From Elusimicrobia bacterium GWC2_64_44 (GTDB taxonomy: Bacteria > Elusimicrobiota > Elusimicrobia > Elusimicrobiales > UBA9959): a DNA stretch of 64,000 bases. Under the pieces are notes generated by a model. It was not told the DNA's origin, made no database searches, and was given only the letters and a program-made list of their open reading frames with translations. Position numbers and translations under genes: made by a program. Positions 2,414 to 47,067 of this stretch are shown in pieces (the first letter of the stretch is position 1; every line of letters begins with the position of its first letter). Where the stretch lies: contig MGUG01000048.1 in assembly GCA_001799845.1 (NCBI GenBank), forward strand, positions 74,944-138,943, read 5' to 3'.

Positions 2414-3329
2414 CTTTGGCCTCCGGGCTCCGCGCCGCCGTGAACGGGGGCTCCAGGTACAGGGAGCTGTGCCCGAGTATCTCCGTCTCTTCCGCCGTCT
2501 CCAGGCCGGTGGTGATCTCGGTCACCAGGAAGCGCCTGCCGCCGGCGTCTATGATATGCCCCCGGGGCACCAGCATGGCGTTCGAGCTCTTGCCTATGAA
2601 AAGCTGCCCGTCGAACTGCTCGCCTATCTTGACGCCGTTCTTGAGGTCGGTGACCTCCAGCCAGAGGCGGTTGAGGCCCTGCGAGTTCTTGACGCGCAGG
2701 AAATTCACCAGCGTGGTGTCGAATTCCGCCTCGGTGCGCAGGTGCTTCACCTTGGCGGTCATGCCCGGCGCCAGCTTGGAGTAGAGCGTTTCGGTGTTCT
2801 TGCCGATGATCACCACTTTCTTGGCCACGGTGAACAGGCGGTCGCCCTTGTTGACGCGGGTCCGGGGCTCTATGTAGACGTTGGTCACCACGCCCTCGGT
2901 CTCGGGCTTGACCTCGGTGAAGCTGTAGACGTCCTGCCAGCGGCGCTCGGTCTGCTTGCGCGATTCCTCGGAGCTGGAGTCCAGCAGGGCCGCCATCTCG
3001 GTGGAGACCATGCGGGCCAGGATGTGCTTGGGCGTGACGAAGGCGAACATCTCGGTCTGCACTTCCTCCACGCGCCCGTCGAAGGGGGCGAAAATGTCGT
3101 AGGTCTCCTGGGCGGTGCTGATGCCGGTCACCGGCGTATAGACCACTATCTCGCCGGTGCGGATGTTGTGGCTGGGGGCGAGGTCCCACGGGGAGGCCTT
3201 CGGCGCTTCGGCCGCCGGGGCGGCCTTCGGCGCGGCTTTCTGCGCGGCGGCGCGCTTCGCCGGGGCGGCGGCGTGGGCCTGGGCTGCCAGCGCCAGGAGC
3301 AGCAGGGAATTAATGAGCTTTCTTTTCAT
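2388..3329 (-). CDS. Secreted HlyD/membrane-fusion-protein-like protein
   Basis: 313 aa. It has a signal peptide (MKRKLINSLLLLALAAQAHA) and an Ala/Lys/Pro-rich linker. Lipoyl-like hairpin motifs (APFDGRVEEVQ; GVVTNVYIEPRTRVNKGDRLFTVA) are typical of periplasmic adaptor proteins. Confidence 0.55.
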   Translation of the reverse strand: MKRKLINSLLLLALAAQAHAAAPAKRAAAQKAAPKAAPAAEAPKASPWDLAPSHNIRTGEIVVYTPVTGISTAQETYDIFAPFDGRVEEVQTEMFAFVTPKHILARMVSTEMAALLDSSSEESRKQTERRWQDVYSFTEVKPETEGVVTNVYIEPRTRVNKGDRLFTVAKKVVIIGKNTETLYSKLAPGMTAKVKHLRTEAEFDTTLVNFLRVKNSQGLNRLWLEVTDLKNGVKIGEQFDGQLFIGKSSNAMLVPRGHIIDAGGRRFLVTEITTGLETAEETEILGHSSLYLEPPFTAARSPEAKDGKSKKDR

Positions 3330-4008
3330 TGAGTTTAGACCAGGCCTCCCAGGTCCACGGCATCCTGGCGCGGAACATCTCCTGGATGGCCTCGGCGTAG
3401 CGGCGGATCTCCCACTGCGCGTGGTCGTCGGCGCGCAGGCTGATGAAGTTCAGCAGGCTGCGCGCGTTGATGGTCCAGTGGAACTGGGTGTACTGCGCCA
3501 CGGGCAGCACCATGCGCGCCATCTCGCGGGCCGCGCCGGCGTCCAGCAGCTCCTGGTAGGCGGCGTAGGAGGCCTTCACGGCCTTGTCGTAGAGCTCCAG
3601 CATCTTCTTCTGGTCCAGGTTCGAGGACGGCAGGGAGCCCTGGCGGTTGCTGCGGTCCTGCGCCCGGAAAACTTCGGGGAAGTAGAACTCGTCGTGCACC
3701 TCGGTATAGCGGGCCGAGATCTCGTTGTAGGAGGCTATGCGGTGGCGCATCCACTGCCGCGCCACGAAGATGGGGCACTTGATGTGGAACTGGAAGACCG
3801 AATGCTCGAAGGGGCTGAAATGGCCGTGCTCGAGCAGGTATTCCAGCAGCTTGCGGTCGGCCGCCTCGCCCTTGGACACGGAGCCGAAGGAAACGCGGGC
3901 CGAGTCCACCGCGCGCTGGTCGCCGCCCATGAAATCTATGAGTTTAACGAAACCCTTGTCCAGCACCCGGGAAAGGTCCCGGCCGGTTTGAAGTCCTGTG
4001 TCTGACAT
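3310..4008 (-). CDS. thyX: FAD-dependent thymidylate synthase
   Basis: 232 aa. RHRIASYNEISARY matches the ThyX motif RHRxxSxxxxSxRY, and SPFEH is present upstream. Confidence 0.9.
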   Translation of the reverse strand: MSDTGLQTGRDLSRVLDKGFVKLIDFMGGDQRAVDSARVSFGSVSKGEAADRKLLEYLLEHGHFSPFEHSVFQFHIKCPIFVARQWMRHRIASYNEISARYTEVHDEFYFPEVFRAQDRSNRQGSLPSSNLDQKKMLELYDKAVKASYAAYQELLDAGAAREMARMVLPVAQYTQFHWTINARSLLNFISLRADDHAQWEIRRYAEAIQEMFRARMPWTWEAWSKLNEKKAH

Positions 4009-4081
4009 GAGCCCTCCGCGGAAAAATTTGAGAAACCCGGATAAAATTATATACTTTTCAAAGTCTTATTAAAAGGCCGCC

Positions 4082-4522
4082 ATGAAAATAAAACTCACCG
4101 CCGACGGTTCCCGCCTGGCGCGCAGCCGCAGCCTGCGCTCCCTTGAAAAGATCATGAAAGTCCTGCTGAACCCCGGCGGCTGCCCCTGGGACCGCCGCCA
4201 GACCCACGCCACGCTGCTGAAATACCTGCGCGAGGAAGCCGGCGAGGTGAGCCAGGCCGTGCGCCGCAAGGACTGGCACAATCTCAGGGAAGAGCTGGGC
4301 GACGTGCTGCTGCAGGTGGTGTTCCACAGCGAGCTCGCCAGGCGCGCCGGCCGCTTTTCGCTGGCCGACGTGATAAAGACCGTGAATTCCAAGATGGTGC
4401 GCCGCCACCCGCACGTGTTCGGCGCGGGGGCCAAGCTGGATACGCCGGCGCAGGTGCTGCGCCAGTGGAAGATCATCAAGAAGGCGGAAAAAGCCAGGGC
4501 CGCCCGCAAGGCGAGCAAGTGA
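4082..4522 (+). CDS. mazG: MazG-type nucleoside triphosphate pyrophosphohydrolase
   Basis: 146 aa. The motifs LREEAGEV...REELGDVLLQVVFH...VRRHPHVF are the MazG EExxE/ExxD helix pair. Confidence 0.8.
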   Translation: MKIKLTADGSRLARSRSLRSLEKIMKVLLNPGGCPWDRRQTHATLLKYLREEAGEVSQAVRRKDWHNLREELGDVLLQVVFHSELARRAGRFSLADVIKTVNSKMVRRHPHVFGAGAKLDTPAQVLRQWKIIKKAEKARAARKASK

Positions 4523-10238: not shown

Positions 10239-11468
10239 ATGATCGACATCGCAAAGAACATCGCCACCACCCCGCGGCGCACCAAAGCTTCCGTTATCCG
10301 CGAGCTCCTGAAGACCACCAACCAGCCCGGCATCATCTCCTTCGCCGGCGGCCTGCCCGCCCCCGACCATTTCCCGTACGATTTCGTGGCCGAGACGGTC
10401 AAGGAGATCATGGCCAAGAAAGGCCGCGTCGCCCTGCAGTACGGCCCCACCGACGGGCTGCCGGAGCTGAAGGAAGAGTTCATCAAGTTCCTCAAGAAGT
10501 ACGAGAACATCGACGCCAAGCCCGAGAACCTCATCATCACCACCGCCAGCCAGCAGGCGCTGGACATGGTAGGCCGCCTCTTCATAGACGCCTCCGACCC
10601 GGTCATCGTCGAGAAGCCCAGCTATATGGGCGCGCTGCAGGTGTTCCGCTCCTACGGCGCCGAGTTCATAGGCGTCAAGCTCGAGGACGACGGCATCAGC
10701 ACCGACGAGCTGCAGGAGAAGCTGGAGTGGCTGCACGCCCAGGACGAGCATTATAAGTTCCTCTACCTGGTCCCGGATTTTCAGAACCCCAGCGGCGTGA
10801 CGCTGTCCGAAGAGAAGCGCAGGAAGATCATCGAGCTCTCCGAGAAATACAATGTCGCCGTCATCGAGGATTCTCCCTACCGCCAGATACGCTTCGAGGG
10901 CACGGAGCCCAAGATGCTCTACCGCCTGGACAAGGAAACCCACAAGACCGACAACATTATCTCGCTGTTCACCTTCTCCAAGACCTTCGCCCCCGGCCTG
11001 CGCCTGGGCATCATCCTCGGCCACCCGCAGATCATCAAGAAGATGGAGATCCTCAAGCAGTCGCTCGACCTCTGCACGTCGAGCCTCAACCAGCTCATCG
11101 CGGCCGAGTTCCTGCGCACCGGCTTCTTCGAGAAGCACATCCAGGTGGTCAAGAAAGACTACAAGGTCAAGAAGGACACGATGGTCGCCGCGCTGGGGAA
11201 ATACATGCCGGACGGCGTCACCTGGACCAACCCCGAGGGCGGTTTGTTCCTGTGGGTGCGCCTGCCCGAGGGCATGAGCGCCGACGACATGTTCCAGGAC
11301 GCGCTGAAAGAGAACGTGGCCTACGTGATAGGTTCCGCATTCCATTCCGACGGCTCCGGCAAGAACACGATGCGCCTGAACTTCTCTTTCGCCAGCCCGG
11401 ACCAGATCGACGAGGGCGTAAAGCGCCTTGCCGCGGCGGTCAAGAAGCGCCTGGTCGCTGTAAAATAA
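10239..11468 (+). CDS. PLP-dependent aminotransferase, class I/II
   Basis: 409 aa. FSKTFAPGLRLG is the PLP-lysine motif, and the size and layout fit the fold type I aminotransferase family. Confidence 0.8.
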   Translation: MIDIAKNIATTPRRTKASVIRELLKTTNQPGIISFAGGLPAPDHFPYDFVAETVKEIMAKKGRVALQYGPTDGLPELKEEFIKFLKKYENIDAKPENLIITTASQQALDMVGRLFIDASDPVIVEKPSYMGALQVFRSYGAEFIGVKLEDDGISTDELQEKLEWLHAQDEHYKFLYLVPDFQNPSGVTLSEEKRRKIIELSEKYNVAVIEDSPYRQIRFEGTEPKMLYRLDKETHKTDNIISLFTFSKTFAPGLRLGIILGHPQIIKKMEILKQSLDLCTSSLNQLIAAEFLRTGFFEKHIQVVKKDYKVKKDTMVAALGKYMPDGVTWTNPEGGLFLWVRLPEGMSADDMFQDALKENVAYVIGSAFHSDGSGKNTMRLNFSFASPDQIDEGVKRLAAAVKKRLVAVK

Positions 11469-11478
11469 ACCTTGCTGA

Positions 11479-12822
11479 ATGGCCGAAACCTCACCTGAGT
11501 TCAGCCGAAACCTTCGTGCCGCCGGCGTAGTCGGAGCCGGCGGCGCGGGTTTTCCTTCCTACGTGAAAGCGCAGGGGAAGGCCGAGTACGCGCTGGTGAA
11601 CGCGGCCGAGTGCGAACCCCTGCTCAAAAAGGACCAGAAGATCCTGGAGTATTTCCCGGAAAAGGTTTTCGACGGGCTGGACCTGCTGATGAAGGCCGTG
11701 GGCGCGTCCCGGGGTATAGTCGGCATCAAGAAGAAGCACGAGAAACTCATCGGGCGCCTGAAAGAGATAGCGAGATCCCGCAAGAATATTTCCATCCTCG
11801 AGATGGGCGACTATTACCCCGCCGGCGACGAGCAGTGCCTGGTCTTCGAGGCCACCGGGCGGATAGTGCCGCCCGGCGGCATCCCGCTCGACGTGGGCTG
11901 CGTGGTCAGCAACGTGGAGACCCTCTATAACGCCGCCTTCGCCCCGCGCCCGGTCACCGAAACTTTCATAACCGTCAACGGCGGCGTAAAGAAACCCGCT
12001 ACCTTCCGCGTGCCGGTGGGCGTCACCTGGCGCGAATGCGTGGAACTGTGCGGCGGGTTCACCGTCAAGGACCCCGCCTATATCGACGGCGGCCCCATGA
12101 TGGGCCGTGTACTGACCGATTTCGACCTGCCGGTGGTGAAAGCCTCCGCCGGCATCATAGTCCTGCCCAAGGACCATCCCCTCATAGTCAAGAAAGCGCA
12201 GAGCCGGCCCGTGTTCACCCGCATCGGGCGCTCCACCTGCGACCAGTGCTCTTTCTGCACCGAGTTCTGCCCGCGCTACCTGCTGGGCCACAACGTGCAG
12301 CCGCACCGCGTGATGCGCACCATGCAGTTCGCCGGCGGCGAGCACAAGGTGCACAGCCCCTACGGCCTGCTCTGCTGCGAATGCTCGCTCTGTTCCCTCT
12401 ACGCCTGCCCCGAGAACCTCAACCCGCGCGAAGCCTGCGTGGCCGCCAAGGGCGACCTGCGGGCCAGGAAGATAGGCTTCAAAAATTCGGACCTGAACAC
12501 CGGGCGCGCCCCGCAGGCGCACCCCGTGCGGGATTTCCGCAAGGTGCCGGTCTCGAAACTGGTGAAACGGCTGGGGCTCGAGGATTACAACAAGGACGCC
12601 CCCTGGACCGAGTTCTCGTACAAGCCGGCCAAGGTCAAAATTTTAATGAGCCAGCATATAGGCGCGCCCTGCGCTCCGGCGGTAAAGGAAGGGCAGCGCG
12701 TGGAGAAGGGCGCCGTGGTGGGGGACGTCTCCGCCGACAAACTGGGCTGCCCCGTGCACGCCAGCGTCTCCGGCACGGTGGTCAAGGTGAACGAAAAATA
12801 CGTGGAAATACAGGCGGACTGA
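11479..12822 (+). CDS. pduS: PduS-like / RnfC-like flavin and Fe-S oxidoreductase (BMC-associated)
   Basis: 447 aa. AGVVGAGGAGFPSYVK is the glycine-rich nucleotide loop. Two 4Fe-4S motifs are present (CDQCSFCTEFCP and CCECSLCSLYACP). There is a C-terminal RnfC-type barrel-sandwich segment (QHIGAPCAPAVKEGQRVEKG...HASVSGTV). The gene sits directly upstream of a PduT-like shell gene. Confidence 0.75.
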   Translation: MAETSPEFSRNLRAAGVVGAGGAGFPSYVKAQGKAEYALVNAAECEPLLKKDQKILEYFPEKVFDGLDLLMKAVGASRGIVGIKKKHEKLIGRLKEIARSRKNISILEMGDYYPAGDEQCLVFEATGRIVPPGGIPLDVGCVVSNVETLYNAAFAPRPVTETFITVNGGVKKPATFRVPVGVTWRECVELCGGFTVKDPAYIDGGPMMGRVLTDFDLPVVKASAGIIVLPKDHPLIVKKAQSRPVFTRIGRSTCDQCSFCTEFCPRYLLGHNVQPHRVMRTMQFAGGEHKVHSPYGLLCCECSLCSLYACPENLNPREACVAAKGDLRARKIGFKNSDLNTGRAPQAHPVRDFRKVPVSKLVKRLGLEDYNKDAPWTEFSYKPAKVKILMSQHIGAPCAPAVKEGQRVEKGAVVGDVSADKLGCPVHASVSGTVVKVNEKYVEIQAD

Positions 12823-12826
12823 ATTT

Positions 12827-13375
12827 ATGCTAAACGCTATAGGCGGGGTTGAACTCTCCAGCATAGCCAAGGGCCTCGAAGCGGCCGACGCCATGCTGAA
12901 GACCGCGAACATCAAGCTGATCCTGTCGCGCTCGGTCTGCCCGGGCAAGTACGTGGCCCTTATAGCCGGGGACGTGGGCGACGTGAACGCCGCGGTGGAG
13001 GCGGGCGCCGCCAAGGCCGCGCACGCGCTGGTGGACAGCTTCGTGGTGCCCAACATCCATCCCGAGGTTTTTCCGGCCATAGAAGGCACCGCCGTGGTGG
13101 AGGCGCTCGAGGCCCTGGGCGTCATAGAGGCTTTCTCCGTTTCCGCCCTGATAGAGGCCGCCGACGCCGCCGTGAAGGCCGGCACCGTGAAACTTCTTGA
13201 AATACGCCTGGCCATGGCCCTGGGCGGCAAAGCTTTCGTCACCATGACAGGCACGGTGGCCGCGGTGGAGACCGCCGTGAACGCCGGCGCCGCCGTGGTA
13301 GGCAAGAAAGGCCTGCTGGTGGAGAAGGTAGTGATACCGCAGCCCCGCCAGGAACTGCTGCGCGAAATTATCTGA
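12827..13375 (+). CDS. pduT: BMC-T tandem-domain shell protein, PduT-like with conserved Cys38
   Basis: 182 aa with two BMC domains (GGVELSSIAKGLEAADAMLK and [20 protein letters not shown]). Cys38 in SVCPGKY sits in the same context as the 4Fe-4S ligand (ICPGKF) of Salmonella PduT as I recall it. Confidence 0.8.
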   Translation: MLNAIGGVELSSIAKGLEAADAMLKTANIKLILSRSVCPGKYVALIAGDVGDVNAAVEAGAAKAAHALVDSFVVPNIHPEVFPAIEGTAVVEALEALGVIEAFSVSALIEAADAAVKAGTVKLLEIRLAMALGGKAFVTMTGTVAAVETAVNAGAAVVGKKGLLVEKVVIPQPRQELLREII

Positions 13376-13387
13376 CCGGAGCACCGC

Positions 13388-14170
13388 ATGAAATATCTTC
13401 TAGCCCTGCTGCTCGCCCTGCCCTCCGCCTTGAGCGCCGAGACCATAAGGATCATCGCGCCTTATACCGGCAGCCTGACCAATAAATACGTCAGCGACGC
13501 GTACGGCCTGGACCTGCGGGACACCGGGGAGATGCACGGCCTCTTCGCCCAATGGCTTAACACGGAAAAATTCCAGATCAACGCCTTCGTCTACACGGCC
13601 CCGGTAGTGAATTATAGCGACGTGGACGGCCTGCACCTGAACGCCGATTATTACCTTAAGCCCACGGCGGCCGGCAAATGGGTGCTAGGCGCCGGCCTGG
13701 AGACCCTGGACATCAAGCTGGACGCGGGCCGCAATATCCCGGGCCTCACCGCCTTCGCGCTGGACAATACGGTCTCCTTTTATTATGGCCGCGCCGGGCG
13801 CTACTTCAATTTCAAGAAGGGCTGGCTCTCCTCTTCCCTGCTGCCTTATGCGGGCTGGGCGCGGGAGAAGATCACGGGCGAACTGCGAATGGACCCGAAT
13901 GGCCCCTCCCCGGCGAGGACCATAGATATCGGCGATTCCGACAGCCACGCCCTGGCCGGCCTCAACCTTAACGCCACGATAGCGCATTTCATAGACCTGC
14001 AGGGCAAATGGATGGGGCGGTTCAAGGATGGCCGCACACTGGACGAGTACTCGCTGATGGCCAATATCTTCCTGAACAGGCATTGGGGCCTGAGCTACCG
14101 CTACAAGTACATGGAGTACGGCTCGTCCTCCAACGGCTACCACCTGGGCGGCGTGGCCTACGTCTTCTGA
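13388..14170 (+). CDS. Outer-membrane beta-barrel protein (unknown family) embedded in the BMC locus
   Basis: 260 aa. It has a signal peptide (MKYLLALLLALPSALSA), alternating hydrophobic strand patterns throughout, and a C-terminal ...HLGGVAYVF ending in Phe (OMP beta-signal). Confidence 0.65.
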   Translation: MKYLLALLLALPSALSAETIRIIAPYTGSLTNKYVSDAYGLDLRDTGEMHGLFAQWLNTEKFQINAFVYTAPVVNYSDVDGLHLNADYYLKPTAAGKWVLGAGLETLDIKLDAGRNIPGLTAFALDNTVSFYYGRAGRYFNFKKGWLSSSLLPYAGWAREKITGELRMDPNGPSPARTIDIGDSDSHALAGLNLNATIAHFIDLQGKWMGRFKDGRTLDEYSLMANIFLNRHWGLSYRYKYMEYGSSSNGYHLGGVAYVF

Positions 14171-14171
14171 C

Positions 14172-14206
14172 GGCCGGTATTGCCGGCCTTACTTTAATAG
14201 TATAAT
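14172..14206 (+). promoter_or_regulatory. Short hairpin plus TATAAT box between the OMP gene and tpiA
   Basis: GGCCGG-TATTG-CCGGCC (14172-14188) is followed by TATAAT at 14201-14206. This is the only 69-nt gap in the first half of the locus. It is a weak call. Confidence 0.3.
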
Positions 14207-14239
14207 TTGCGAAGATTGAGCGTTTCAAGGAGACTCAGA

Positions 14240-15019
14240 ATGGCTTCAGCTAAAAGAACCCCGATGATAGCCGGCAACTGGAAGATGCACATGACCGCCA
14301 AGGAGGCCGCCGACCTGGCCGCCGCCATGCGCAAAGGCCTGGACCCGGACCTGAAGCACGAAGTGCTGCTCGCCCCCACTTTCACCGCGCTGCACGCCGT
14401 CAACGCCGTGCTCGGCGGCTCCAAAATCTTCCTCTCGTCCCAGGACGTGTGCTGGGAAGAGAAAGGCGCCTTCACCGGCGCCGTCTCCCCGTCGCAGCTC
14501 AAGGACGCGGGCTGCACCCACGCCATCATCGGCCATTCCGAGCGCCGCAAGGTGTTCCTCGAGACCGACGAGGTGGTCAACAAGAAGATGAAGGCCGCCA
14601 TAAAGGCGGGTCTCGTGCCCGTGCTCTGCATCGGCGAGACGCTCGAGGAGCGCGAGAGCCAGAAGACCTACCGCGTGCTGGAGACCCAGCTCGTCGGCGC
14701 CTTCGCCGGCATCACGCCCGCCGAAGCCGCCAAGGTCGTGATAGCCTACGAGCCTGTGTGGGCCATCGGCACCGGCAAGACCGCCACGCCCGACCAGGCG
14801 CAGGACGCCCACGTTTTTGTGCGCAAGCAGATGGAGCGCATTTACGGGCGTGATTACGCCGAGGCCGTGCGCATACTTTACGGCGGCTCGGTGAAGGCCG
14901 ACAATATAGACGAGCTGATGGCCCAAGGCGACATAGACGGCGCGCTGGTGGGCGGCGAGAGCCTGAAGGCCGACAAGTTCCTGCGCGTCATACATTTTCA
15001 GCCCGCGCTGAGCAGGTAA
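14240..15019 (+). CDS. tpiA: Triosephosphate isomerase
   Basis: Start trimmed to MASAKRTPMIAGNWKMH. It contains the AIIGHSERR, YEPVWAIGTG and YGGSV motifs. Confidence 0.9.
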   Translation: MASAKRTPMIAGNWKMHMTAKEAADLAAAMRKGLDPDLKHEVLLAPTFTALHAVNAVLGGSKIFLSSQDVCWEEKGAFTGAVSPSQLKDAGCTHAIIGHSERRKVFLETDEVVNKKMKAAIKAGLVPVLCIGETLEERESQKTYRVLETQLVGAFAGITPAEAAKVVIAYEPVWAIGTGKTATPDQAQDAHVFVRKQMERIYGRDYAEAVRILYGGSVKADNIDELMAQGDIDGALVGGESLKADKFLRVIHFQPALSR

Positions 15020-15022
15020 AAC

Positions 15023-15655
15023 GTGAACGAGCAGCTGCTGAAGGAAATACTCGAGGACCTGAAACTCCGCCAGGCGCGTTCCGCCCTGGCCGTCCCCGTG
15101 GGCATTTCCAACCGCCACGTGCATCTGACGAAGGAAGATTTCAAGACCCTCTTCGGCGCGGACGCTGACGACACGCGGCTCAAGGCGGTAAAGCAGCCCG
15201 GCCAGTACGCCTGCAACGAGCGGGTGACGGTGGAAGGCCCCAAAGGCGCGCTCAAGGACGTCCGGATGATCGGGCCGTACCGGAAATACAGCCAGGTGGA
15301 AGTTTCCCTGGGCGACGCGCGCCGGCTGGGAGCGGAACCGCCGATACGCGACTCCGGCAAGCTGGACAACTCCCCGGGCGTCAGGCTGGTCGGGCCCAAG
15401 GGTTCCGTGACCTTGAAGAGCGGCCTGATCCTGTCCAAGCGGCATATACATTTTAACGTGAAGGAAGGCGCGGCGTACAAAGTGAAGGACGGGCAGGAAG
15501 TGCGCGTGCTCTGCGGCCGGGGCACGGACCGGGAGACCATCTTCGAGCGGGTGCTGTGCCGCGTTTCGGACGCCTATTCCCTGGAGCTGCACCTCGACGT
15601 GGAAGAAGCCAACGCCGCCGGCCTGAAGAACTGCGACCCGGCCTACATAGTGTAA
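15023..15655 (+). CDS. pduL: PduL-type phosphotransacylase with N-terminal encapsulation-peptide-like helix
   Basis: 210 aa with a GTG start. Two PTAC repeats are present (GISNRHVHL and SKRHIHF). The N-terminus EQLLKEILEDLKL is an amphipathic helix. Confidence 0.85.
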   Translation: MNEQLLKEILEDLKLRQARSALAVPVGISNRHVHLTKEDFKTLFGADADDTRLKAVKQPGQYACNERVTVEGPKGALKDVRMIGPYRKYSQVEVSLGDARRLGAEPPIRDSGKLDNSPGVRLVGPKGSVTLKSGLILSKRHIHFNVKEGAAYKVKDGQEVRVLCGRGTDRETIFERVLCRVSDAYSLELHLDVEEANAAGLKNCDPAYIV

Positions 15656-15835
15656 GGATTTTGAAGTAAAGAACTCCTTTTAGGAGGGGTTCAGCGGAGC
15701 CTGAGCCGCAGGGCGAAGGCGCAGCGACGACGAAACGGGGAACCTTAGGTTCCCCTTGTAGAGCGCCCGGCCGACGAAGGCCGGGTCGCAATCGACCCCG
15801 GGCAAAGCCCGGGGCGCGACAGACTGGAGGATAAT
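15656..15835 (+). other. 180-nt hairpin-dense non-coding spacer upstream of BMC-H 1
   Basis: Three perfect GC-rich hairpins are present. They are GGGGAACC-TTA-GGTTCCCC (15737-15755), CCCGGCC-GACGAA-GGCCGGG (15766-15785) and CCCCGGGC-AAA-GCCCGGGG (15796-15814). No ORF is present. Confidence 0.7.
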
Positions 15836-16120
15836 ATGGACGCACTCGGAATGATAGAAACCAAGGGCCTCGTGGCCTGTGTGGAAGCGGCTGACGCCGC
15901 GGTGAAAGCCGCCAACGTCAAGATCGTCGGCTACGAGAAGGTCGGCTCCGGCCTCGTGACCATCCTTTTCCGCGGCGAAGTGGCCGCCTGCCGCGCCGCC
16001 TGCGACGCCGGCGCCGCCGCCGCCCAGAAAGTGGGCGAGCTGGTGAGCGTGCACGTGATCCCGCAGCCGCACGGCGACCTGGAAGGCAAGCTGCCGATCA
16101 GCGACGCCAAGAAGAAGTAG
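15836..16120 (+). CDS. BMC-H hexameric shell protein (PduA/EutM-like)
   Basis: 94 aa. [26 protein letters not shown]...GSGLVT...VHVIPQPH is a canonical single BMC domain. Confidence 0.9.
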
Positions 16121-16132
16121 ACTGCCGTTCCG

Positions 16133-16159
16133 GGCGCAGGGGGCTTCGGCCCCCGCGCC
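16133..16159 (+). terminator. UUCG-tetraloop hairpin after BMC-H 1 (possible attenuator or 3' stabiliser)
   Basis: GGCGC(A)GGGGGC-TTCG-GCCCCCGCGCC forms 11 bp with one bulge. It is followed by TGACTCTTTTG and then the SD of the BMC-P gene. Confidence 0.45.
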
Positions 16160-16178
16160 TGACTCTTTTGGAGGAATC

Positions 16179-16487
16179 ATGCTATTCGCACGAGTAGTGG
16201 GTAACGTGGTCTGCACCCGCAAGGACGACAAGCTCGTCGGCACCAAGCTGCTGATGGTGCAGCCCGTGGGCCTCGACGACAAGCCGCGCGGCAACACTCT
16301 CGTCGGCATCGACGCCGTGGGCGCCGGCACCGGCGAACTGGTGCTGCTGGTGCAGGGCTCCAGCGCCCGCCAGACTTCCAAGACCGAAAATACGCCGGTG
16401 GACTGCACGGTCTTCGCCATCGTGGATACCGTGGAGAAGGACGGCAAGATAGTCTTCAAGAAATCGGTCGGAAAATTCCAGGAATAA
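16179..16487 (+). CDS. BMC-P pentameric vertex protein (EutN/CcmL/PduN family), paralogue 1
   Basis: 102 aa. The matching segments are MLFARVVGNVVCTRKDDKLVGTKLLMVQPV...GIDAVGAGTGELVLLVQGSSAR...FAIVD. Confidence 0.85.
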   Translation: MLFARVVGNVVCTRKDDKLVGTKLLMVQPVGLDDKPRGNTLVGIDAVGAGTGELVLLVQGSSARQTSKTENTPVDCTVFAIVDTVEKDGKIVFKKSVGKFQE

Positions 16488-16490
16488 GCC

Positions 16491-17903
16491 ATGCCTTTAA
16501 GCGAAGAAGACCTGCGGAAGATAGTGACGGAGGTGGTGCGCAATCTCGAGACGGCCCCGGCCGCCCCGGCGCAGTCCTCTGCCGGCCCGGTGTTCGACAC
16601 CGTCGACGCCGCCGTGAGCGCCGCCGAGCAGGCCCAGCCCGTGTTCCAGGAGCTGGGGCTGGCGGCGCGGGAAAAGATAATCTCCGCCATGCGCGAAGTT
16701 TCGCGCGCCAATTCCCGCCGCTGGGCGGAACTGGCCGTGGCCGAGACCGGCATGGGCCGGGTGGAAGACAAAGTTTTGAAGAACCAGGTCTGCATCGACG
16801 GGACCCCGGGCGTGGAAGATCTGCGCGCGATGGCCTACACCGGGGACAAGGGCCTGACCCTGGTGGAATACGCGCCCTTCGGCGTGGTGGCCGCCATCAC
16901 GCCCTCCACCAACGCCGTGGCCACCATCATCTCCAACGCCATCGGCATCCTCGCCGCCGGCAACTCCGTGGTCTTCTCGCCTCACCCCGCCGCCAAGGGC
17001 TGCGTGGCCGACGCCGTGCGCGTGCTGGATAAAGCTATCGTAGCGGCGGGCGGGCCCGCTAATTTGGTGACTACCATCGCCAAGCCCACCCAGGAGGCGA
17101 CCAAGCAGCTCCTGTGCCACCCCCGGACCAACATGAACATAGTGACCGGCGGCCCGGCAATTGTGAAAGTGGCCATGACCGCCGGCAAGCCCTGCAAGAC
17201 CATAGCCGCCGGGCCCGGCAACCCGCCCGTGGTGGTGGACGAGACCGCCGTGTTCCCGGATTGCGCCAGGGAAATAATTTACGGCTGCGGCTTCGACAAC
17301 AACGTGCTGTGCATCGCCGAGAAGGAAGTGATAGTGACCGAGGCCGCGAAGTCCCGCTTCCTGGAAGCCATGCGCTCAGACCCCCGCGCCTACGAACTCT
17401 CCGGCTCACAGATGGACGGACTCACCAAACTCATTATCCTGGAACCCGGGCCGGAGCCCAAGATCAACCGGGACTTCATAGGCAAGAACCCGTCGGTGAT
17501 AGCCCGGGCCATAGGCCTGAGCCTCTCCGACGACATCCGCGTGCTCTGGGCCGAGGTGCCTAACGACCACCCGTTGGTCCACGCCGAGCAGCTGATGCCG
17601 GTGCTGCCCGTGACCGTGGCCCGCGACGTGGACGCCGCCATCGAGCTGGCCCGCCGCGCCGAGGGGAATAACCACCACAGCGCCGGGATGTATTCCACCA
17701 ATGTCAAGAACATGACCAAGATGGGCCGCCGCATGGCCTGTTCCATCTTCGTCAAGAACGGCTGCACGCTGCATGGCCTGGGCCTCGGCGAGGGCTACGC
17801 CTCCATGTCCATCGGGACGCCTACGGGCGACGGCATCACCAAGACCAGCCATTTCGTGCGCCCGCTGCAGTGCAGCGTAGTCGGCGATCTGAGAATAGCG
17901 TAA
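16491..17903 (+). CDS. CoA-acylating aldehyde dehydrogenase (EutE/PduP-like) with N-terminal encapsulation-peptide-like helix
   Basis: 470 aa. GFDNNVLCIAEKE is the catalytic Cys loop. The N-terminal helix EEDLRKIVTEVVRNL is followed by an Ala/Pro linker. Confidence 0.85.
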   Translation: MPLSEEDLRKIVTEVVRNLETAPAAPAQSSAGPVFDTVDAAVSAAEQAQPVFQELGLAAREKIISAMREVSRANSRRWAELAVAETGMGRVEDKVLKNQVCIDGTPGVEDLRAMAYTGDKGLTLVEYAPFGVVAAITPSTNAVATIISNAIGILAAGNSVVFSPHPAAKGCVADAVRVLDKAIVAAGGPANLVTTIAKPTQEATKQLLCHPRTNMNIVTGGPAIVKVAMTAGKPCKTIAAGPGNPPVVVDETAVFPDCAREIIYGCGFDNNVLCIAEKEVIVTEAAKSRFLEAMRSDPRAYELSGSQMDGLTKLIILEPGPEPKINRDFIGKNPSVIARAIGLSLSDDIRVLWAEVPNDHPLVHAEQLMPVLPVTVARDVDAAIELARRAEGNNHHSAGMYSTNVKNMTKMGRRMACSIFVKNGCTLHGLGLGEGYASMSIGTPTGDGITKTSHFVRPLQCSVVGDLRIA

Positions 17904-17914
17904 GGAGATTTAAT

Positions 17915-18463
17915 ATGCAGGCCAATATAGCCGTGGGTTTGATCGAACTCTCCTCGATAGCCAAAGGCATCGAGACCCTGGACGCCATGTGCAAGGCCGC
18001 GGGCGTCAAGCCCGAGGTGCACCAGGCGATCTCGAAGGGGAAATATATCATCGTGATCTCGGGCCCGCTCGGCGAAGTCGAGTCTTCCCTGGCCAAGGGC
18101 GCGGAGATAGCCGGCAATACCGTGATAGCCCGGCACCTCATCCGCAACATCCACTCCGGCGCGCTGGCCGCGCTTAATAAAAAAGTTAAGCCCGCCAAGA
18201 TAGAGGCCGTGGGTATTGTCGAGACCAAAGAGGCCCTGCCGGCGCTGTTCGCCGCCGACGCGGCCGCGAAGGCCGCCTTCGTGCACGTGGCCGAGGTCAA
18301 CACCGGGCGTGGCATAGGCGGCAAAGGCTATTTCACCGTGGTCGGCGAGCCCGGCGCGGTGCGCACTGCGGTCACCGCCGGCGTGAAAGCCATCGGCGAG
18401 GACGCCGTGATCAGCCGCATAGTGATACCCAACGCGCACGAGCATCTCGGCGCGGCCATATAG
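17915..18463 (+). CDS. BMC-T tandem-domain shell protein, PduT-like fold but Ser at the cluster-ligand position
   Basis: Start trimmed to MQANIAVGLIELSSIAKG. It has two BMC domains (the second is AVGIVETKEALPALFAADAAAKAA). AISKGKY aligns with the SVCPGKY segment of the first BMC-T. Confidence 0.8.
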   Translation: MQANIAVGLIELSSIAKGIETLDAMCKAAGVKPEVHQAISKGKYIIVISGPLGEVESSLAKGAEIAGNTVIARHLIRNIHSGALAALNKKVKPAKIEAVGIVETKEALPALFAADAAAKAAFVHVAEVNTGRGIGGKGYFTVVGEPGAVRTAVTAGVKAIGEDAVISRIVIPNAHEHLGAAI

Positions 18464-18472
18464 GAGATTGCC

Positions 18473-18919
18473 ATGAGAATAGTCATAGGCGCTGACCACG
18501 CGGGTTTCGACGCTAAAGAGCGGCTCAAGAAGTTCCTGCAGAAGCTCGGCCACGACGTCACCGACTTCGGCTGCTACTCTACGGAGCCGGTGGATTTTCC
18601 GGACATAGCCCTGCTCGTCAGCGAGGCCGTGCGCCGGAAAGAGTTCGACCGTGCCGTGCTGGTGGACGGCTTCAACGGCGCCATGCCGCTGGCCGCCAAC
18701 AAGGTGCACGGCATCCGCGCCGTGGCAGCCTACGACACCATCTCGGCCCGCTTCGCGGCGGCGCACGAGGACTGCAACGTGCTCTGCCTTGGCGGCAAGA
18801 CGCACGGCGAGCTGGCCCTCGAGGAAATGATCAAGGTCTGGCTCAATACCCCTTTCGAGGGCGGCAAGTACCAGAAGCGCCTCGACAAGATCACCGCGAT
18901 AGAACAGAAGAATTACTGA
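18473..18919 (+). CDS. rpiB: RpiB/LacAB-family sugar-phosphate isomerase
   Basis: 148 aa. The matching segments are MRIVIGADHAGF...VLVDGFNGAMPLAANKVHGIRA...CNVLCLGG. Confidence 0.85.
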   Translation: MRIVIGADHAGFDAKERLKKFLQKLGHDVTDFGCYSTEPVDFPDIALLVSEAVRRKEFDRAVLVDGFNGAMPLAANKVHGIRAVAAYDTISARFAAAHEDCNVLCLGGKTHGELALEEMIKVWLNTPFEGGKYQKRLDKITAIEQKNY

Positions 18920-18920
18920 G

Positions 18921-19217
18921 ATGAAACAGGCCAAGGTCATAGGAAGGGTTTTCTGCTCCCGCCAGTGCTGCGGCATGGAGTCGAAGACGCTTCTTTTGAT
19001 CCAGCCGCTCGACTGGGAGACCGACAAGCCCGCGGGCGACCCGCTGGTAGCGGGAGACACCGTCGGGGCCGGGGCGGGGGAGACGGTCTTCTTTGTCGCC
19101 TCCCGCGAGGCCATACAGGCCTTCGAGGGCTGGGAGGGCGAGACGGCGGCCAAGGCCGCGCCGCCGCCAGTGGACGCCGCGATAGTAGGGATAATCGACG
19201 GCAAGCAGATCCGCTAA
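18921..19217 (+). CDS. BMC-P vertex protein, paralogue 2 (divergent)
   Basis: 98 aa. The EutN pattern is VIGRVFCSR...LLLIQPL...AGDTVGAGAGETVFFV...DAAIVGIIDG. It has an unusual CSRQCCG segment and an insertion (AIQAFEGWEGETAAKAAPPP). Confidence 0.75.
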   Translation: MKQAKVIGRVFCSRQCCGMESKTLLLIQPLDWETDKPAGDPLVAGDTVGAGAGETVFFVASREAIQAFEGWEGETAAKAAPPPVDAAIVGIIDGKQIR

Positions 19218-19221
19218 TTTT

Positions 19222-19497
19222 ATGTTCGTAGCCAAAGTCATAGGGAACGTCTGGGCCACCCGCAAGCATCCGGGGCTGAAGGGAGCCACCATGCTGCTGG
19301 TCAAGCCGCTGGGCGCCGACGGGAAACCGGCCGGCGAGGCGCAGCTCGCGCTCGACGGCGGGCAGGGCGCCGGGCCCGGAGATACCGTGCTGATAGTGGA
19401 CGAGGGCGGCTCCGCCCGCAAGATACTGCGGAATCCGAAAGCGCCGGTGCGCACCGTGATAGCCGGCATCGTGGATAAAGTCTATTTAGGAGAATAA
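19222..19497 (+). CDS. BMC-P vertex protein, paralogue 3
   Basis: 91 aa. The matching segments are [30 protein letters not shown]...[22 protein letters not shown]...TVIAGIVD. Confidence 0.85.
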
Positions 19498-19501
19498 GAC
19501 C

Positions 19502-20482
19502 ATGAACGACGAAGATATAAAGAAAATAGCCGCCGAGGTGGCCAGGATCATGAAGGCCGGGGGGCAGTCCGCTCCCCGCCAGAGCCTGGGCGATTCCGTG
19601 AGCATCGGCTCAGCCGGAAAAGTTTTCCAGCGCCCGCTGGTGAACTCCCCGGCCCCCTCCGAAAAGAAGCCCTGCACGGGCCAGGGCGACTGCCGCCTGG
19701 AGGAGAACACCTGCAGCTCCTCCTGCCAGAGCTGCAACCCGCTGAACAAATATACCCCGCAGCAGATCAAGGCCAGCGCCGACCGCGTGAGCTTCTGCAA
19801 CCCCAACGAGTCCAGCTCCTCTATCGCCGGCATGATAGACCACACCCTGCTCAAGGCCAACGCCACGCAGGAGGAGATAGGCAAGCTCTGCGAGGAGGCA
19901 CGCAAGTACCGCTTCGCCTCCGTGTGCGTGAACCCCGGCTACGTTGCCATGGCCAGCCGCCTGCTGCGCGGCTCCTCCGTGATGGTCTGCACCGTCATCG
20001 GCTTCCCGCTGGGCTCGACCACCCCGACGGTGAAGGCCATAGAGGCCCGCGACGCCATAGCCAACGGCGCCGACGAGATAGACATGGTCATCAATATCGG
20101 CGCGCTGAAATCCGGCAACGACCAGCTGGTGCAGGACGATATCAAGGCCGTGCGCGAGGCCACCCGCGGCAAGTGCCTCAAGGTCATCCTCGAGACCTCG
20201 TACCTGACCAAGGACGAGAAGGTGCGCGCCTGCAAGATGAGCAAGATCGCGCAGGCCGACTTCGTGAAGACCTCCACCGGCTTCGGCTCCGGCGGGGCGA
20301 CCCCCGAGGACATAGCGCTGATGCGCGAGACCGTGGGCCCCGAGATGGGCGTGAAGGCCTCCGGCGGCATCAAGAACGCGGAGGTGGCCGCGGCCATGAT
20401 CAAGGCCGGCGCCACGCGCCTCGGCACGAGCGCCAGCATCGCCATAGTTTCCGGCGGAGAAGCCGCCAAAGGGCAGTATTAA
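19502..20482 (+). CDS. deoC: Deoxyribose-phosphate aldolase (DERA) with an N-terminal extension of about 100 aa
   Basis: 326 aa. The DERA core starts near aa 110 (MIDHTLLK) and contains [17 protein letters not shown] (Schiff-base Lys) and GVKASGGI. The extension carries the helix [15 protein letters not shown] and the Cys pattern C58-x5-C64-x6-C71-x3-C75-x2-C78. Confidence 0.85.
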
Positions 20483-20662
20483 GCAGGGCGGTCCGGCCGG
20501 GGGGACACCCCGCCCGCCCGGACTGCAGGGAACCGTTGCGCGGTTCCCCTCCAGCCGAAGCGGCTGGAGCCTCCCCTCCCCAACGGGCGTTCGGGGCATC
20601 CCCCCGGTCGTACCTTGGGGCGAATTTAAAAGAGGAGTTCCTTAGAATCAAGGAGAAAGAAT
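20483..20662 (+). other. Second 180-nt hairpin-dense non-coding spacer, upstream of BMC-H 2
   Basis: Contains GGGAACCG-TTGCG-CGGTTCCC (20528-20548), CTCCAGCC-GAAGC-GGCTGGAG (20549-20569) and further GC-rich stems at 20483-20526 and 20578-20596. It is the same length as the 15656-15835 spacer. Confidence 0.7.
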
Positions 20663-20956
20663 ATGTCTGAACCTAAAGAAGCGCTGGGAATGATAGAGAC
20701 CAAGGGTTTCATCGGCATGATCGAAGCCTCCGACGCCATGAGCAAGGCCGCCAAGGTGCGCCTGCTCGGCTACGAGAAGATCGGCTCGGGCTACATGACC
20801 ACCCTGTGCGTGGGCGAAGTGGGCGCCGTGCGCGCCGCCGTGGAAGCCGGCGCGGCCTCGGCCCAGAAGGTGGGGGAGCTCGTAGGGATGCACGTCATAC
20901 CGCGCCCCTCCGACGACCTGGACAAGTACCTCGCGAAGATCTCGGTGAAGCTCTGA
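20663..20956 (+). CDS. BMC-H hexameric shell protein, paralogue 2
   Basis: 97 aa. The matching segments are [26 protein letters not shown]...GSGYMT...MHVIPRP. Confidence 0.9.
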
Positions 20957-21006
20957 TAAACGGCCCGCGGCCCCGTTGCGTCTGACGCCGGGCCGCGCGC
21001 GGTTTT

Positions 21007-21246
21007 ATGCTTACCAAGGGCGCCCTTGAAGACCTGATCATGGAGCACCTCCGGCCCGCGCCGGGGGCGGCGCCCGCCATGAAAAAAGTCCCCGAGCTGA
21101 AAAAGAAAGTCTTTCTCAGCGATTGGGAGCTCCGCCGGCTCTACAAGCCAGGAGCGCGAGCGGTAACGGTGCCAGCCAACGCCATCCTCAGCCCGCTCTC
21201 GCTGGACTGGCTGGACTACGACGGGGTGAATGTGCTCAGGGTCTGA
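21007..21246 (+). CDS. Small BMC-locus protein with encapsulation-peptide-like N-terminus
   Basis: 79 aa. The N-terminal helix KGALEDLIMEHL is followed by a Pro/Ala linker. Then comes FLSDWELRRLYKPGARAVTVPANAILSPLSLDWLDYDGVNV, which resembles a short module I recall at the N-termini of some BMC-locus accessory proteins. Confidence 0.5.
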   Translation: MLTKGALEDLIMEHLRPAPGAAPAMKKVPELKKKVFLSDWELRRLYKPGARAVTVPANAILSPLSLDWLDYDGVNVLRV

Positions 21247-35180: not shown

Positions 35181-36680
35181 CTAAAATTTACCTGCCACTA
35201 TCTTCCTGCCGGCCTCGCAGAGGGCGGCTATTTTCTTCTGGTCCGCGGCCTCGGCGTAGAGGCGCACGGTAGGCTCGGCGCTGCCGGCGGGGCGCAGGCC
35301 CAGCCAGCTGCCGTCCTTCATGATGAACTTGAAGCCGTCGGTCTGGTCGATGCGCCAGACCGGGGCGCCGGCCAGGCTCAGCGGCGGGTTGAGCTTGAGC
35401 TTCTCCACCAGCCCTTCCATGTGCACGTTCTTGTCGAGCTGCAGGGTGAGCCGCGTGTTGGTGAAGGTGCCCACCTTCTTGGCCAGGTCCGCTATGATCT
35501 TCTTTATCGGCTTGCGCTCGTAGGCCACCATCTCCGCCATCAGCAGGCAGGCGAGGATGCCGTCCTTCTCGGGGACGTGGTTCATGATGGTCAGGCCGCC
35601 GGACTCTTCGCCGCCCAGCAGGTACTGCCCGGTGCGCATCAGGTTGCCGACGTGCTTGAAGCCGACGGCCGTCTCGCGCACTTCGAGGCCGTGCGACTTG
35701 GCTATGGCGTCCGTGAAATGGGAGGTCATCACCGAGCGGGCGACCTTGCCCTTGAGGCCGCGGTTCTTGGCCAGGTGCTCGAGGACCAGCCCCAGCACCA
35801 GGTTGGGGGAGATCCAGGTCCCGTCGGAATCTATCACGCCGAAGCGGTCGGCGTCGCCGTCGCAGGCCAGGCCCAGGTTCAGCTTGCCCTTCACCACGGC
35901 TTCCCGGAGGCCCTTGAGGTTCTCCTCGCCGGTGTCGGGGGCGCGCCCGCCGAACAGCACGTCGCGCTCCTCGCGCAGGCCGGTCACTTTGGCGCCGGCC
36001 CGCTCCAGCATGGGCCGCAGGTAGCCGCGGGCCGCGCCGTTGACGGAATCGGTCGCTATCTTCAGGCCGGCCTTCTTGATGGCGCCCAGGTCCAGCAGGG
36101 AAGAGAGCTGCTTGAAATAGTCCTCGCGGAAATCCTTCACCATGATGATGCCGGCCGTCACGCCGTGGTCGAAGGGGATGATCTTCTCCACCTCGGCGAT
36201 GGTCAGCGCCTGCACGCGGGCTTCGAGGTCCGCCGTGATCTCCGGCATGGCCGGGCCGCCCCAGTAGGGGGTCCACTTGACGCCGCTGTAGTAGGGCTGG
36301 TTCTGGCTCGCCGTGAGCATCAGCCCGCCGGAGGCGTCGTTCTTCATGACCTCGAAAGCCACCACCGGCGTCGGGGTGTCGGAATGGGAGATTATGGCGG
36401 TGATGCCCTCCGAGGCGATGGCCTCGGCGGCGTTCTTCGCGAAATCCTCGGACATGTAGCGGGTGTCGTACCCGATGACGATCTTCGCCGTTTTCGGCGC
36501 GGGCTTGCCGGCTTTGCGGAGGCTGAGCAGGAATTCCTCGCCCTTGTAGCCGTATTCCCGGTTTTCCTTTACATGCTCGGCGGCGGCATGGGCCACGCGG
36601 CGCAGGGTAGCAAGGTTGAACTCTTCGCCGATCACGGCTCTCCAGCCAGAGGTGCCGAACTTGATATTAGGGGTCGCCAT
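35181..36680 (-). CDS. Alpha-D-phosphohexomutase family (phosphoglucomutase/phosphomannomutase) with atypical active-site loop
   Basis: Trimmed to [14 protein letters not shown] (499 aa). It contains DGDADR (Mg loop), GGEESGG (sugar loop) and RPAGSAEP (phosphate loop). The phosphoserine loop reads TASQNQ instead of TASHNP. Confidence 0.8.
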
Positions 36681-36764
36681 AGATGTAGGAAATATAGCAT
36701 AAGAGAGCAAAAAAAGCAAAGAGGCGGCCGGCCCGGCCGATATTTTTGTAAAATATAAACCCGA

Positions 36765-37250
36765 ATGAAATATATACTTATAATCTGCGCGCTGCTGGCC
36801 CAGCCGCTCGCCGCCGCGGACGGCGCCGCGGAGCTGGAGCTCAGGGGCTACCTTTCCGCGTGGACGCAGGCTTGCGCCGGCGCTTCCTGCCAGCTGCCCA
36901 AACCCGGGGAGCGCAGCCGGCCCGTCGCCCTGCGGCTGGCCCTGCCTTCGGCTCCCGGAGAGGCCGCGGCCGCCCACGCATCGGAGAAGCTGCTGCTGCC
37001 AGGAGGCGGAGAGCTGGAAGTGGACCTGGATTTTTACGCCGTCTGCCCCTATGCCGGCAAGGCCGCCGCCCCCGCGCCCTGCGCCGGGCGCTATTTCCAG
37101 GCGCAGGTCTCCCTGTCCGGCCCGGCCGGCGCCTTCTGCGCCGCCGCCCTCAACGCTGACGACTTCGCCCCTTTTCCCGTCCTGATGTGCGCCGGCCCCG
37201 GCCAGGCCGGCCTTCGCTACGGCGTCACCCTGCACCGCCAGCCCCTCTGA
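36765..37250 (+). CDS. Secreted hypothetical protein
   Basis: 161 aa with a signal peptide (MKYILIICALLAQPLAAA). It is Cys-containing and Ala/Pro-rich, with no recognisable motif. Confidence 0.45.
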   Translation: MKYILIICALLAQPLAAADGAAELELRGYLSAWTQACAGASCQLPKPGERSRPVALRLALPSAPGEAAAAHASEKLLLPGGGELEVDLDFYAVCPYAGKAAAPAPCAGRYFQAQVSLSGPAGAFCAAALNADDFAPFPVLMCAGPGQAGLRYGVTLHRQPL

Positions 37251-37253
37251 CCT

Positions 37254-39676: not shown

Positions 39677-39760
<84 letters not shown>

Positions 39761-44500: not shown

Positions 44501-44635
44501 AACTATATGATAGCAAAGCCCGGGGCCGGGGGGCCAGAACCCGCGGACGGCGGGCCGGGGCGGGGACTTAAGGCTTGCTGTCGGTGGCCCGGATATATCA
44601 AAATCTATACACCGACGGAAGACAGCGCGGGAACT

Positions 44636-46996: not shown

Positions 46997-47022
46997 CGCC
47001 TCACCCGTAAATGGACAAAAGA

Positions 47023-47048
47023 AAAGGCCCCGGAGTTCCGGGGCCTTT
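47023..47048. terminator. Bidirectional rho-independent terminator
   Basis: The arms AAAGGCCCCGGA / TCCGGGGCCTTT lie between convergent genes and are flanked by A- and T-rich runs. Confidence 0.8.
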
Positions 47049-47067
47049 CTTGTTATTAGCTGCTTGC

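Follow-up and report, generated by a model that had tools for sequence, protein, structure and literature searches.

We analysed 64,000 nucleotides of contig MGUG01000048.1 from the uncultured Elusimicrobia bacterium GWC2_64_44 (hereafter the window) and found that positions 11479-21246 hold, on the forward strand, a complete and real bacterial microcompartment (BMC) gene cluster, probably one that degrades the DNA sugar deoxyribose-5-phosphate. We consider it likely that this stretch is an SPU1-type (sugar-phosphate-utilising) metabolosome locus working by the mechanism described below, which is built around a deoxyribose-phosphate aldolase (DERA) carrying an N-terminal targeting helix. The locus is already known: it was catalogued in 2021 as the SPU1 main locus of GWC2_64_44 and is a typical member of its class. 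SPU microcompartments belong to the most widespread organelles of bacteria, and they may be a main route by which environmental DNA sugars are recycled.

Identity of the locus and assignment to SPU1

The cluster consists of 16 closely packed open reading frames (ORFs; Table 1), whose third-position GC is high, as in genuine genes (window GC: 64%). Its source was established by exact protein matches: the metabolosome NADH dehydrogenase (MNdh) is identical to OGR76170.1 (A2X32_02770) and the aldehyde dehydrogenase to OGR76176.1 (A2X32_02805), both of GWC2_64_44. Because locus tags run in order, the gene at 12827-13375, which lies between these two, is A2X32_02775, and this gene is entered in the supplementary BMC-T^s tree of Sutter et al. 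2021 as 'bmcType=SPU1 (main)' (182 aa, PduT type). The locus is therefore part of the published catalogue and cannot be presented as novel; being an entry there, it adds nothing to that catalogue and has some reference value as a well-annotated example.

SPU1 comprises 62 loci, all from Elusimicrobia (Sutter et al. 2021, Nat Commun 12:3809, Supplementary Data 2). Its reported traits are an aldehyde dehydrogenase with an encapsulation peptide, a PTAC together with a triosephosphate isomerase (TPI), a pair of BMC-H proteins with the motifs KAAK/PRPH and KAA(N/D)/PQPH, and two BMC-T^s proteins, one of the PduT type, bearing a cysteine in its pore, beside a PduS homologue and one without the cysteine (Sutter et al. 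2021). The window has the Elusimicrobia host, the PTAC (pfam06130) and TPI (pfam00121), the BMC-H pair, the BMC-T^s pair and, as noted, its own catalogue entry; the locus holds two BMC-T genes and no third, so that BMC-T^dp is absent, as in SPU1. Features common to all SPU subtypes were also found, namely a DeoC-type aldolase (pfam01791) among the shell genes, between BMC-P3 and BMC-H2, with an N-terminal extension that includes an amphipathic helix; an RpiB-type protein (pfam02502) with a Cys to Asp substitution; a CoA-acylating aldehyde dehydrogenase; and three BMC-P proteins.

Comparison with related loci points the same way. In species-representative genomes the closest DERA loci belong to Elusimicrobia without exception, and the gene order TPI-PTAC-H-P-AldDH-T-RPI-P-P-DERA-H-ORF79 is identical in four further Elusimicrobia loci. 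The whole locus, including the upstream arrangement, is contained in a contig from a JGI metagenome (L081) that aligns collinearly with window positions 3360-24172 at ~91% DNA identity.

Family membership was determined through Pfam and NCBIfam profile searches, which bore out all 13 gene calls of a preliminary description made from the sequence alone and placed all seven of its shell ORFs (2 BMC-H, 2 BMC-T, 3 BMC-P) in PF00936 or PF03319. Its assignment to the SPU class was also right, as the locus fits the SPU1 features and is itself catalogued. The same description held that the class was uncharacterised, with neither a demonstrated substrate nor a purified shell; this has been overtaken by the activity reported for an SPU6 DERA in 2024 and by the Hodarchaeales shells reported in 2025, both discussed below.

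Table 1. Features of the SPU1 locus in window coordinates
Feature	Position	Strand	Details
MNdh, PduS-like metabolosome NADH dehydrogenase, 447 aa	11479-12822	+	Pfam Complex1_51K, SLBB, Fer4_17, C-terminal RnfC_N
BMC-T^SE, PduT-type tandem-domain	12827-13375	+	Two PF00936; full-length TIGR02526 eut_PduT match; pore motif CPGK (...SRSVCPGKYV...)
ORF260, 260-aa secreted, possibly outer-membrane protein	13388-14170	+	Signal-peptide-like N-terminus, C-terminal Phe
Terminator-like GC hairpin	14172-14188	+	GGCCGGTATTGCCGGCC followed by T-rich tail; just 3' of ORF260
Triosephosphate isomerase (TPI), 259 aa	14240-15019	+	Pfam TIM 3.5e-93; no N-terminal extension
PduL-type PTAC	15023-15655	+	PF06130 1.7e-68, domain from residue 25; NF011652 238 bits
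First GC-rich hairpin array	15690-15825	+	Upstream of BMC-H1; minimum free energy -74.5 kcal/mol, z = -5.2
BMC-H1	15836-16120	+	PF00936 1.3e-28; interface motifs KAAN / PQPH
BMC-P1	16179-16487	+	PF03319 7.2e-31
CoA-acylating aldehyde dehydrogenase, EutE/PduP type	16491-17903	+	Pfam Aldedh; NF011927 569 bits
Second BMC-T^s	17915-18463	+	Two PF00936; full-length TIGR02526 match; no pore Cys (ISKGK)
RpiB-like protein (RPI), 148 aa	18473-18919	+	PF02502 (LacAB_rpiB) 1.1e-44; bare domain, no N-terminal extension
BMC-P2	18921-19217	+	PF03319 4.1e-21
BMC-P3	19222-19497	+	PF03319 5.7e-26
DERA, 326 aa	19502-20482	+	N-terminal extension residues 1-110; Pfam DeoC (PF01791) from residue 111
DERA encapsulation-peptide helix, residues 3-19	19508-19558	+	AlphaFold2 helix; hydrophobic moment
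GxAGKVF motif, DERA linker residues 36-42	19607-19627	+	G39, K40, F42 invariant, G36 at least 90% (68 SPU1 DERAs)
Cysteine cluster of DERA extension (C58, C64, C71, C75, C78, C99)	19673-19798	+	
Second GC-rich hairpin array	20485-20625	+	Upstream of BMC-H2; minimum free energy -90.8 kcal/mol, z = -4.5
BMC-H2	20663-20956	+	PF00936 1.7e-26; interface motifs KAAK / PRPS
ORF79, 79-aa conserved small protein	21007-21246	+	N-terminal amphipathic segment; domain like C-terminal tail of eut_hyp (TIGR02536)

Signature enzyme and cargo targeting

DERA scores 294 bits against the TIGR00126 equivalog (NCBIfam cut-off: 117 bits) and aligns from residue 105 with the solved DERA 8qps (E = 4.7e-82), with further solved DERAs matching at better than 1e-80. 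Residues D194, K227 and K256 are invariant among 68 homologues, and with these catalytic residues intact the enzyme is predicted to cleave deoxyribose-5-phosphate, an activity that has been measured on an SPU6 homologue: Dwyer, Sutter and Kerfeld (2024) showed that SPU6 DERA without its N-terminal extension cleaves this substrate, with a reported Km of 0.104 (PMC11585597). Pfam scans of the other likely genes across the 64 kb, where several ORFs have no Pfam match at all, returned no diol or glycerol dehydratase, ethanolamine lyase, glycyl-radical enzyme, class II aldolase or B12 gene; DERA is the sole aldehyde-generating enzyme found, as had been claimed in the preliminary description.

The beginning of the DERA extension has the character of an encapsulation peptide. 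The AlphaFold2 model of the protein has a helix at residues 3-19 (pLDDT 87 for residues 1-10 and 76 for residues 11-20), and its hydrophobic moment (0.69) is the highest of the protein. Close homologues of the full-length protein number more than 100 in public metagenomes; a protein search with residues 1-133 alone gave 6 matches, and the homologue sets used here were drawn from full-length searches. Many public records annotate close DERA homologues as proteins of 216-236 aa from which the extension is missing, a start-site misannotation that was described by Dwyer et al. 2024 (PMC11585597). The exact full-length sequence is present in JGI and ENA and not in NCBI.

The aldehyde dehydrogenase (NF011927 cut-off: 403 bits) carries an N-terminal amphipathic helix, EEDLRKIVTEVVRNL, that is near-identical to the DERA helix, each being the most amphipathic segment of its protein; the segment EDLRKIVTEVVRNL has the top hydrophobic moment of the dehydrogenase (0.74). 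N-terminal helices of the same kind, weaker than these two, were found in ORF79 and in the PTAC (NF011652 cut-off: 209 bits), the latter being a short helix, MNEQLLKEILEDLK, with a hydrophobic moment of 0.49. In MNdh, two ferredoxin motifs occur, at residues 254 (CDQCSFCTEFCP) and 299 (CCECSLCSLYACP). For TPI the true start is the ATG at 14240, which gives a protein equal in length to its L081 orthologue.

In an alignment with RpiB 3he8, the RpiB-like protein (RPI) reads VLVDGFNG against IVICGTGLG, so that the catalytic Cys is replaced by Asp, while His98 and the fold are retained. This substitution is found in all SPU RPIs, and SPU6 RPI, which forms a stable complex with DERA that was purified, has negligible ribose-5-phosphate isomerase activity (PMC11585597). 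The RPI of the window, which has lost its catalytic Cys and bears no peptide of its own, is probably a non-catalytic partner of DERA. Lacking an extension, RPI and TPI would lie outside the shell or be carried into it by a partner.

Shell proteins and proposed mechanism

The two tandem-domain BMC-T^s proteins share 36% identity. BMC-T^SE, the one with the pore cysteine, is encoded directly 3' of the MNdh gene, an arrangement found in 97% of MNdh loci (PMC11626177). BMC-H2 is 59% identical to BMC-H1, and its PRPS motif is one residue away from the published SPU1 motif PRPH. The three BMC-P proteins have pairwise identities of 39-43%, and the genes for BMC-P2 and BMC-P3 are adjacent. The N-terminal loop of BMC-P2 is Cys-rich (VFCSRQCCG), with the double Cys kept only in the closest relatives (L001 and L081); the loop (CSRQCC) was considered as a lead and dropped on account of this limited conservation. 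By analogy with the related systems in which this has been demonstrated (PMC12747264), the seven shell proteins are predicted to form a closed shell around the enzymes.

In the mechanism that we propose, which follows the SPU scheme already in the literature, deoxyribose-5-phosphate would be made in the cytosol from deoxynucleosides, by enzymes encoded outside the window, and would enter a shell composed of two BMC-H proteins of complementary charge, two trimeric BMC-T^s proteins and three pentameric BMC-P proteins. Inside, DERA would split it into glyceraldehyde-3-phosphate and acetaldehyde, the aldehyde dehydrogenase would convert acetaldehyde to acetyl-CoA with formation of NADH, and PduL would convert acetyl-CoA to acetyl-phosphate, so recycling CoA inside the shell. 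MNdh would re-oxidise the NADH, and the electrons would travel by way of its FMN and its two [4Fe-4S] clusters to the neighbouring BMC-T^SE, whose [4Fe-4S] pore would let them out. TPI would equilibrate glyceraldehyde-3-phosphate with dihydroxyacetone phosphate and, as it carries no targeting peptide, would probably do so on the outside of the shell, and the RpiB-like protein would probably act as the non-catalytic partner of DERA.

The support for these steps differs in kind. Family membership, catalytic residues, Fe-S motifs and targeting helices are read from the sequence itself. The catalytic activity of DERA and its complex with RPI are carried over from SPU6, and shell self-assembly from the Hodarchaeales (Asgard archaea), whose SPU-type shells were reconstituted in a 2025 preprint with cargo recruitment dependent on encapsulation peptides (PMC12747264). 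Electron transfer by MNdh and BMC-T^SE is carried over from Clostridium botulinum; PduS homologues of this kind regenerate NAD+ together with an Fe-S BMC-T^SE partner, electrons passing out via the shell (PMC11626177). We infer substrate entry, function in vivo, the localisation of TPI and RPI, and the external electron acceptor.

Weighing of alternative explanations

Several points weigh against the proposed mechanism. The literature searched contains no report of a native SPU organelle, of an in vivo substrate or of any experiment or protein assay on SPU1. Pfam scans found no nucleoside phosphorylase, deoxyribokinase or acetate kinase encoded in the 64-kb window, the sole candidate phosphopentomutase being a PGM/PMM-family ORF at 35181-37856; deoxynucleoside catabolic genes and a regulator were looked for across the window and none was found, and substrate supply is therefore assumed. 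Targeting peptides are absent from TPI and RPI, and the RPI-like protein is without a clear role. In a rival reading, a different or additional sugar phosphate is processed and deoxyribose-5-phosphate is not the main physiological substrate, the Cys to Asp protein being an active (deoxy)sugar-phosphate isomerase whose product goes to DERA or to a promiscuous reaction of that enzyme. Conservation of RPI beside DERA in almost all SPU subtypes, its fusion to DERA in SPU3 and the account of Dwyer et al., who left its role unexplained and raise this very possibility (PMC11585597), are consistent with such a function, as are the retained His98 and fold and the lack of deoxynucleoside catabolic genes flanking the locus. 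Yet the DERA scores highly as an equivalog of the housekeeping enzymes and its active site is intact, and its SPU6 homologue cleaves deoxyribose-5-phosphate while the accompanying RPI shows negligible isomerase activity on ribose-5-phosphate (PMC11585597). Moreover, an Elusimicrobium metagenome-assembled genome (L006, 7816-10684) has an aminotransferase 83% identical to that at 10239-11468 of the window, TPI and an extension-less DERA in one contiguous run, with neither RPI nor shell genes between TPI and DERA; this supports a functional TPI-DERA link that is independent of the shell, and the contig ends 117 bp after DERA, so that a downstream shell cluster is possible. We regard another main substrate as unlikely.

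The redox module raises a separate question. An unrelated gene (ORF260) and a terminator-like hairpin stand between MNdh/BMC-T^SE and the core, and in two related loci, L002 and L003, neither MNdh nor BMC-T^SE occurs within 10 kb (20 kb examined); NAD+ recycling through MNdh may therefore be accessory to the pathway and not part of its core. The range could be composite, with an SPU1 core running from TPI to ORF79 (14240-21246) and a formerly satellite redox module that landed upstream of it together with an unrelated envelope-protein gene and is co-transcribed with the aminotransferase operon and not with the shell genes. The hairpin after ORF260 suggests that MNdh/BMC-T^SE/ORF260 and TPI...ORF79 may be separate transcripts, the MNdh start (11479) follows the aminotransferase stop (11468) by only 10 bp, homologues of ORF260 elsewhere are not BMC-linked, and PduS/T occurs in satellite loci of five SPU1 genomes (Sutter et al. 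2021), with which a role of MNdh/BMC-T^SE as a semi-independent add-on may be consistent. Against this, A2X32_02775 was catalogued in the main locus (Sutter et al. 2021) and the arrangement is kept in L081 at ~91% DNA identity; such an origin would bear on transcription-unit structure only and would leave function unchanged. We hold a composite range to be a serious possibility that falls somewhat short of an even chance. That the locus is instead a silent or decaying remnant no longer building an organelle, as the lack of an adjacent regulator might suggest, is highly improbable given that 16 of the 16 ORFs are intact with high third-position GC, that catalytic and interface residues are conserved, and that close full-length DERA homologues are so numerous in public metagenomes. 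An SPU1 metabolosome fed by deoxyribose-5-phosphate is the reading that we prefer.

Cysteine cluster in the DERA extension

Between the encapsulation helix and the barrel, the DERA extension carries a cluster of six cysteines that seems to be unreported and that we offer as a modest side lead; the searchable text of the 2021 catalogue, the 2024 characterisation and the 2025 preprint does not mention the motif. Among 109 SPU1 DERAs, C99 is conserved in 100%, C75 and C78 in 97% and C71 in 85%, and at least 4 cysteines occur in the extension of 105 of the 109. Cysteine makes up 8.5% of residues in the extension of SPU1 DERAs vs 2.3% in the barrel, and the commonest spacing is C-x5-C-x6-C-x3-C-x2-C-x20-C.

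The feature is also found more widely. An extension of at least 45 residues was present in 101 of 150 diverse DERA representatives, and 55 of these 101 have at least 3 cysteines within the 70 residues before the barrel, the main patterns being the ferredoxin-like C-x(4-12)-C-x2-C-G-x-C (22 sequences) and C-x2-C-x(3-8)-C-x3-C (12 sequences). An alignment of the former type contains four invariant cysteines, and a profile built for it gave a weak, marginal match to 4Fe-4S ferredoxin motifs (PscB, E = 0.005). A second match, again marginal (1mzh, E = 6e-4), pairs the segment that follows the cysteines with DERA's own C-terminal helix-strand AGAxRIGxSxG, which suggests that a duplicated copy of the last helix-strand unit of the enzyme (AGAxRIG) lies after the cluster. 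In the AlphaFold2 model of full-length DERA the cysteine region is of low confidence (pLDDT 40-60).

It is possible, if rather doubtful, that the SPU DERA extension is more than an encapsulation peptide and that the cluster binds an Fe-S centre or zinc, coupling packaging or activity to redox state or metal supply. Dwyer et al. 2024 removed the N-terminal extension to obtain soluble enzyme (PMC11585597); a metal or Fe-S centre, if real, could account for the insolubility of full-length SPU DERA made aerobically in E. coli and would amount to a redox or metal checkpoint on cargo loading.

Intervening ORFs, RNA hairpins and neighbouring genes

ORF260 has no Pfam or NCBIfam match. Its 48 homologues are Elusimicrobia-named or nameless, and in four other genomic contexts no BMC or deo neighbours were found; the gene is probably a passenger, and the idea that it encodes a BMC-linked outer-membrane channel for substrate uptake was rejected on the evidence of these neighbourhoods.

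Both GC-rich hairpin arrays consist of three or four very stable hairpins and share a GGGAACC...GGTTCCC stem that is unique to them within the window; in L081, BMC-H1 precedes the first array instead of following it. By acting on mRNA processing or stability, the arrays may set the dosage of shell proteins. A search with Rfam matched only a tRNA at 39677 in the whole window and revealed neither a riboswitch nor any further known RNA close to the locus, and a sigma-70 promoter scan was uninformative.

ORF79 also stands at the 3' end of other SPU1 loci (L001, 7875-8060; L002, 11560-11787; L003, 11655-11906; also L081). The protein, which like ORF260 was assigned to no family, and its L003 orthologue give weak matches to positions ~158-204 of TIGR02536 (eut_hyp); longer DERAs in other SPU-type loci (L005, L008 and L010) have the flavoprotein-like core of eut_hyp fused to their N-terminus. 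BLASTP between ORF79 and the flavoprotein-like domain of these longer DERAs was not significant, and the link to eut_hyp consists of the weak model matches only.

Elsewhere in the window (3310-4522 and 43883-49608) lie deoxynucleotide synthesis and housekeeping genes, encoding ThyX, MazG, thymidylate kinase and a ribonucleotide reductase with a TSCPD domain. A 1216-aa ORF at 60113-63763 has no Pfam match; in its residues 1-429 Glu, Lys, Arg and Gln are abundant and the sequence resembles a long coiled coil, and the region has a strong AT skew (+0.35).

Comparison with known systems

The SPU1 loci of the catalogue share with the window a DERA and an RPI that flank two BMC-P, a third BMC-P, a peptide-tagged aldehyde dehydrogenase, PTAC and TPI, together with the BMC-H motif pair, a PduT-type BMC-T^s with a pore Cys beside PduS and a second BMC-T^s that is Cys-less. 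The differences are inessential (PRPS in place of PRPH in BMC-H2, and the ORF260 gene between BMC-T^SE and TPI). The catalogue text states that SPU1 DERA extensions 'do not resemble EPs' (encapsulation peptides), whereas the first 19 residues of the window DERA clearly do.

SPU6 of Chloroflexi bacterium GWB2_54_36 (Commun Biol 7:1562) has in common with the window the extended DERA, the Cys to Asp RPI, the aldehyde dehydrogenase, the BMC-P triplet and the predicted chemistry. It differs in having BMC-T^dp, in lacking PTAC and MNdh/BMC-T^SE, and in carrying encapsulation peptides on the C-terminus of the aldehyde dehydrogenase and on RPI, which in the window is a bare protein of 148 aa. The Hodarchaeales SPU-type system (PMC12747264) resembles the window in its DERA, aldehyde dehydrogenase, PTAC, MNdh with a CPGK BMC-T^s, and pentamer triplet; unlike the window, it has a DERA-flavoprotein fusion, a citrate synthase-PTAC and one pentamer with a DNA-binding tail, the sole flavoprotein/eut_hyp relic of the window being ORF79 at 21007.

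With the EUT and PDU microcompartments the window shares the overall logic of an aldehyde-producing signature enzyme, a CoA-acylating aldehyde dehydrogenase, a PduL-type PTAC, a PduS/PduT pair and amphipathic encapsulation peptides. Unlike them, it has no alcohol dehydrogenase and no B12 genes, and it employs a class I aldolase, acting on a phosphorylated sugar, instead of a B12-dependent lyase or dehydratase.

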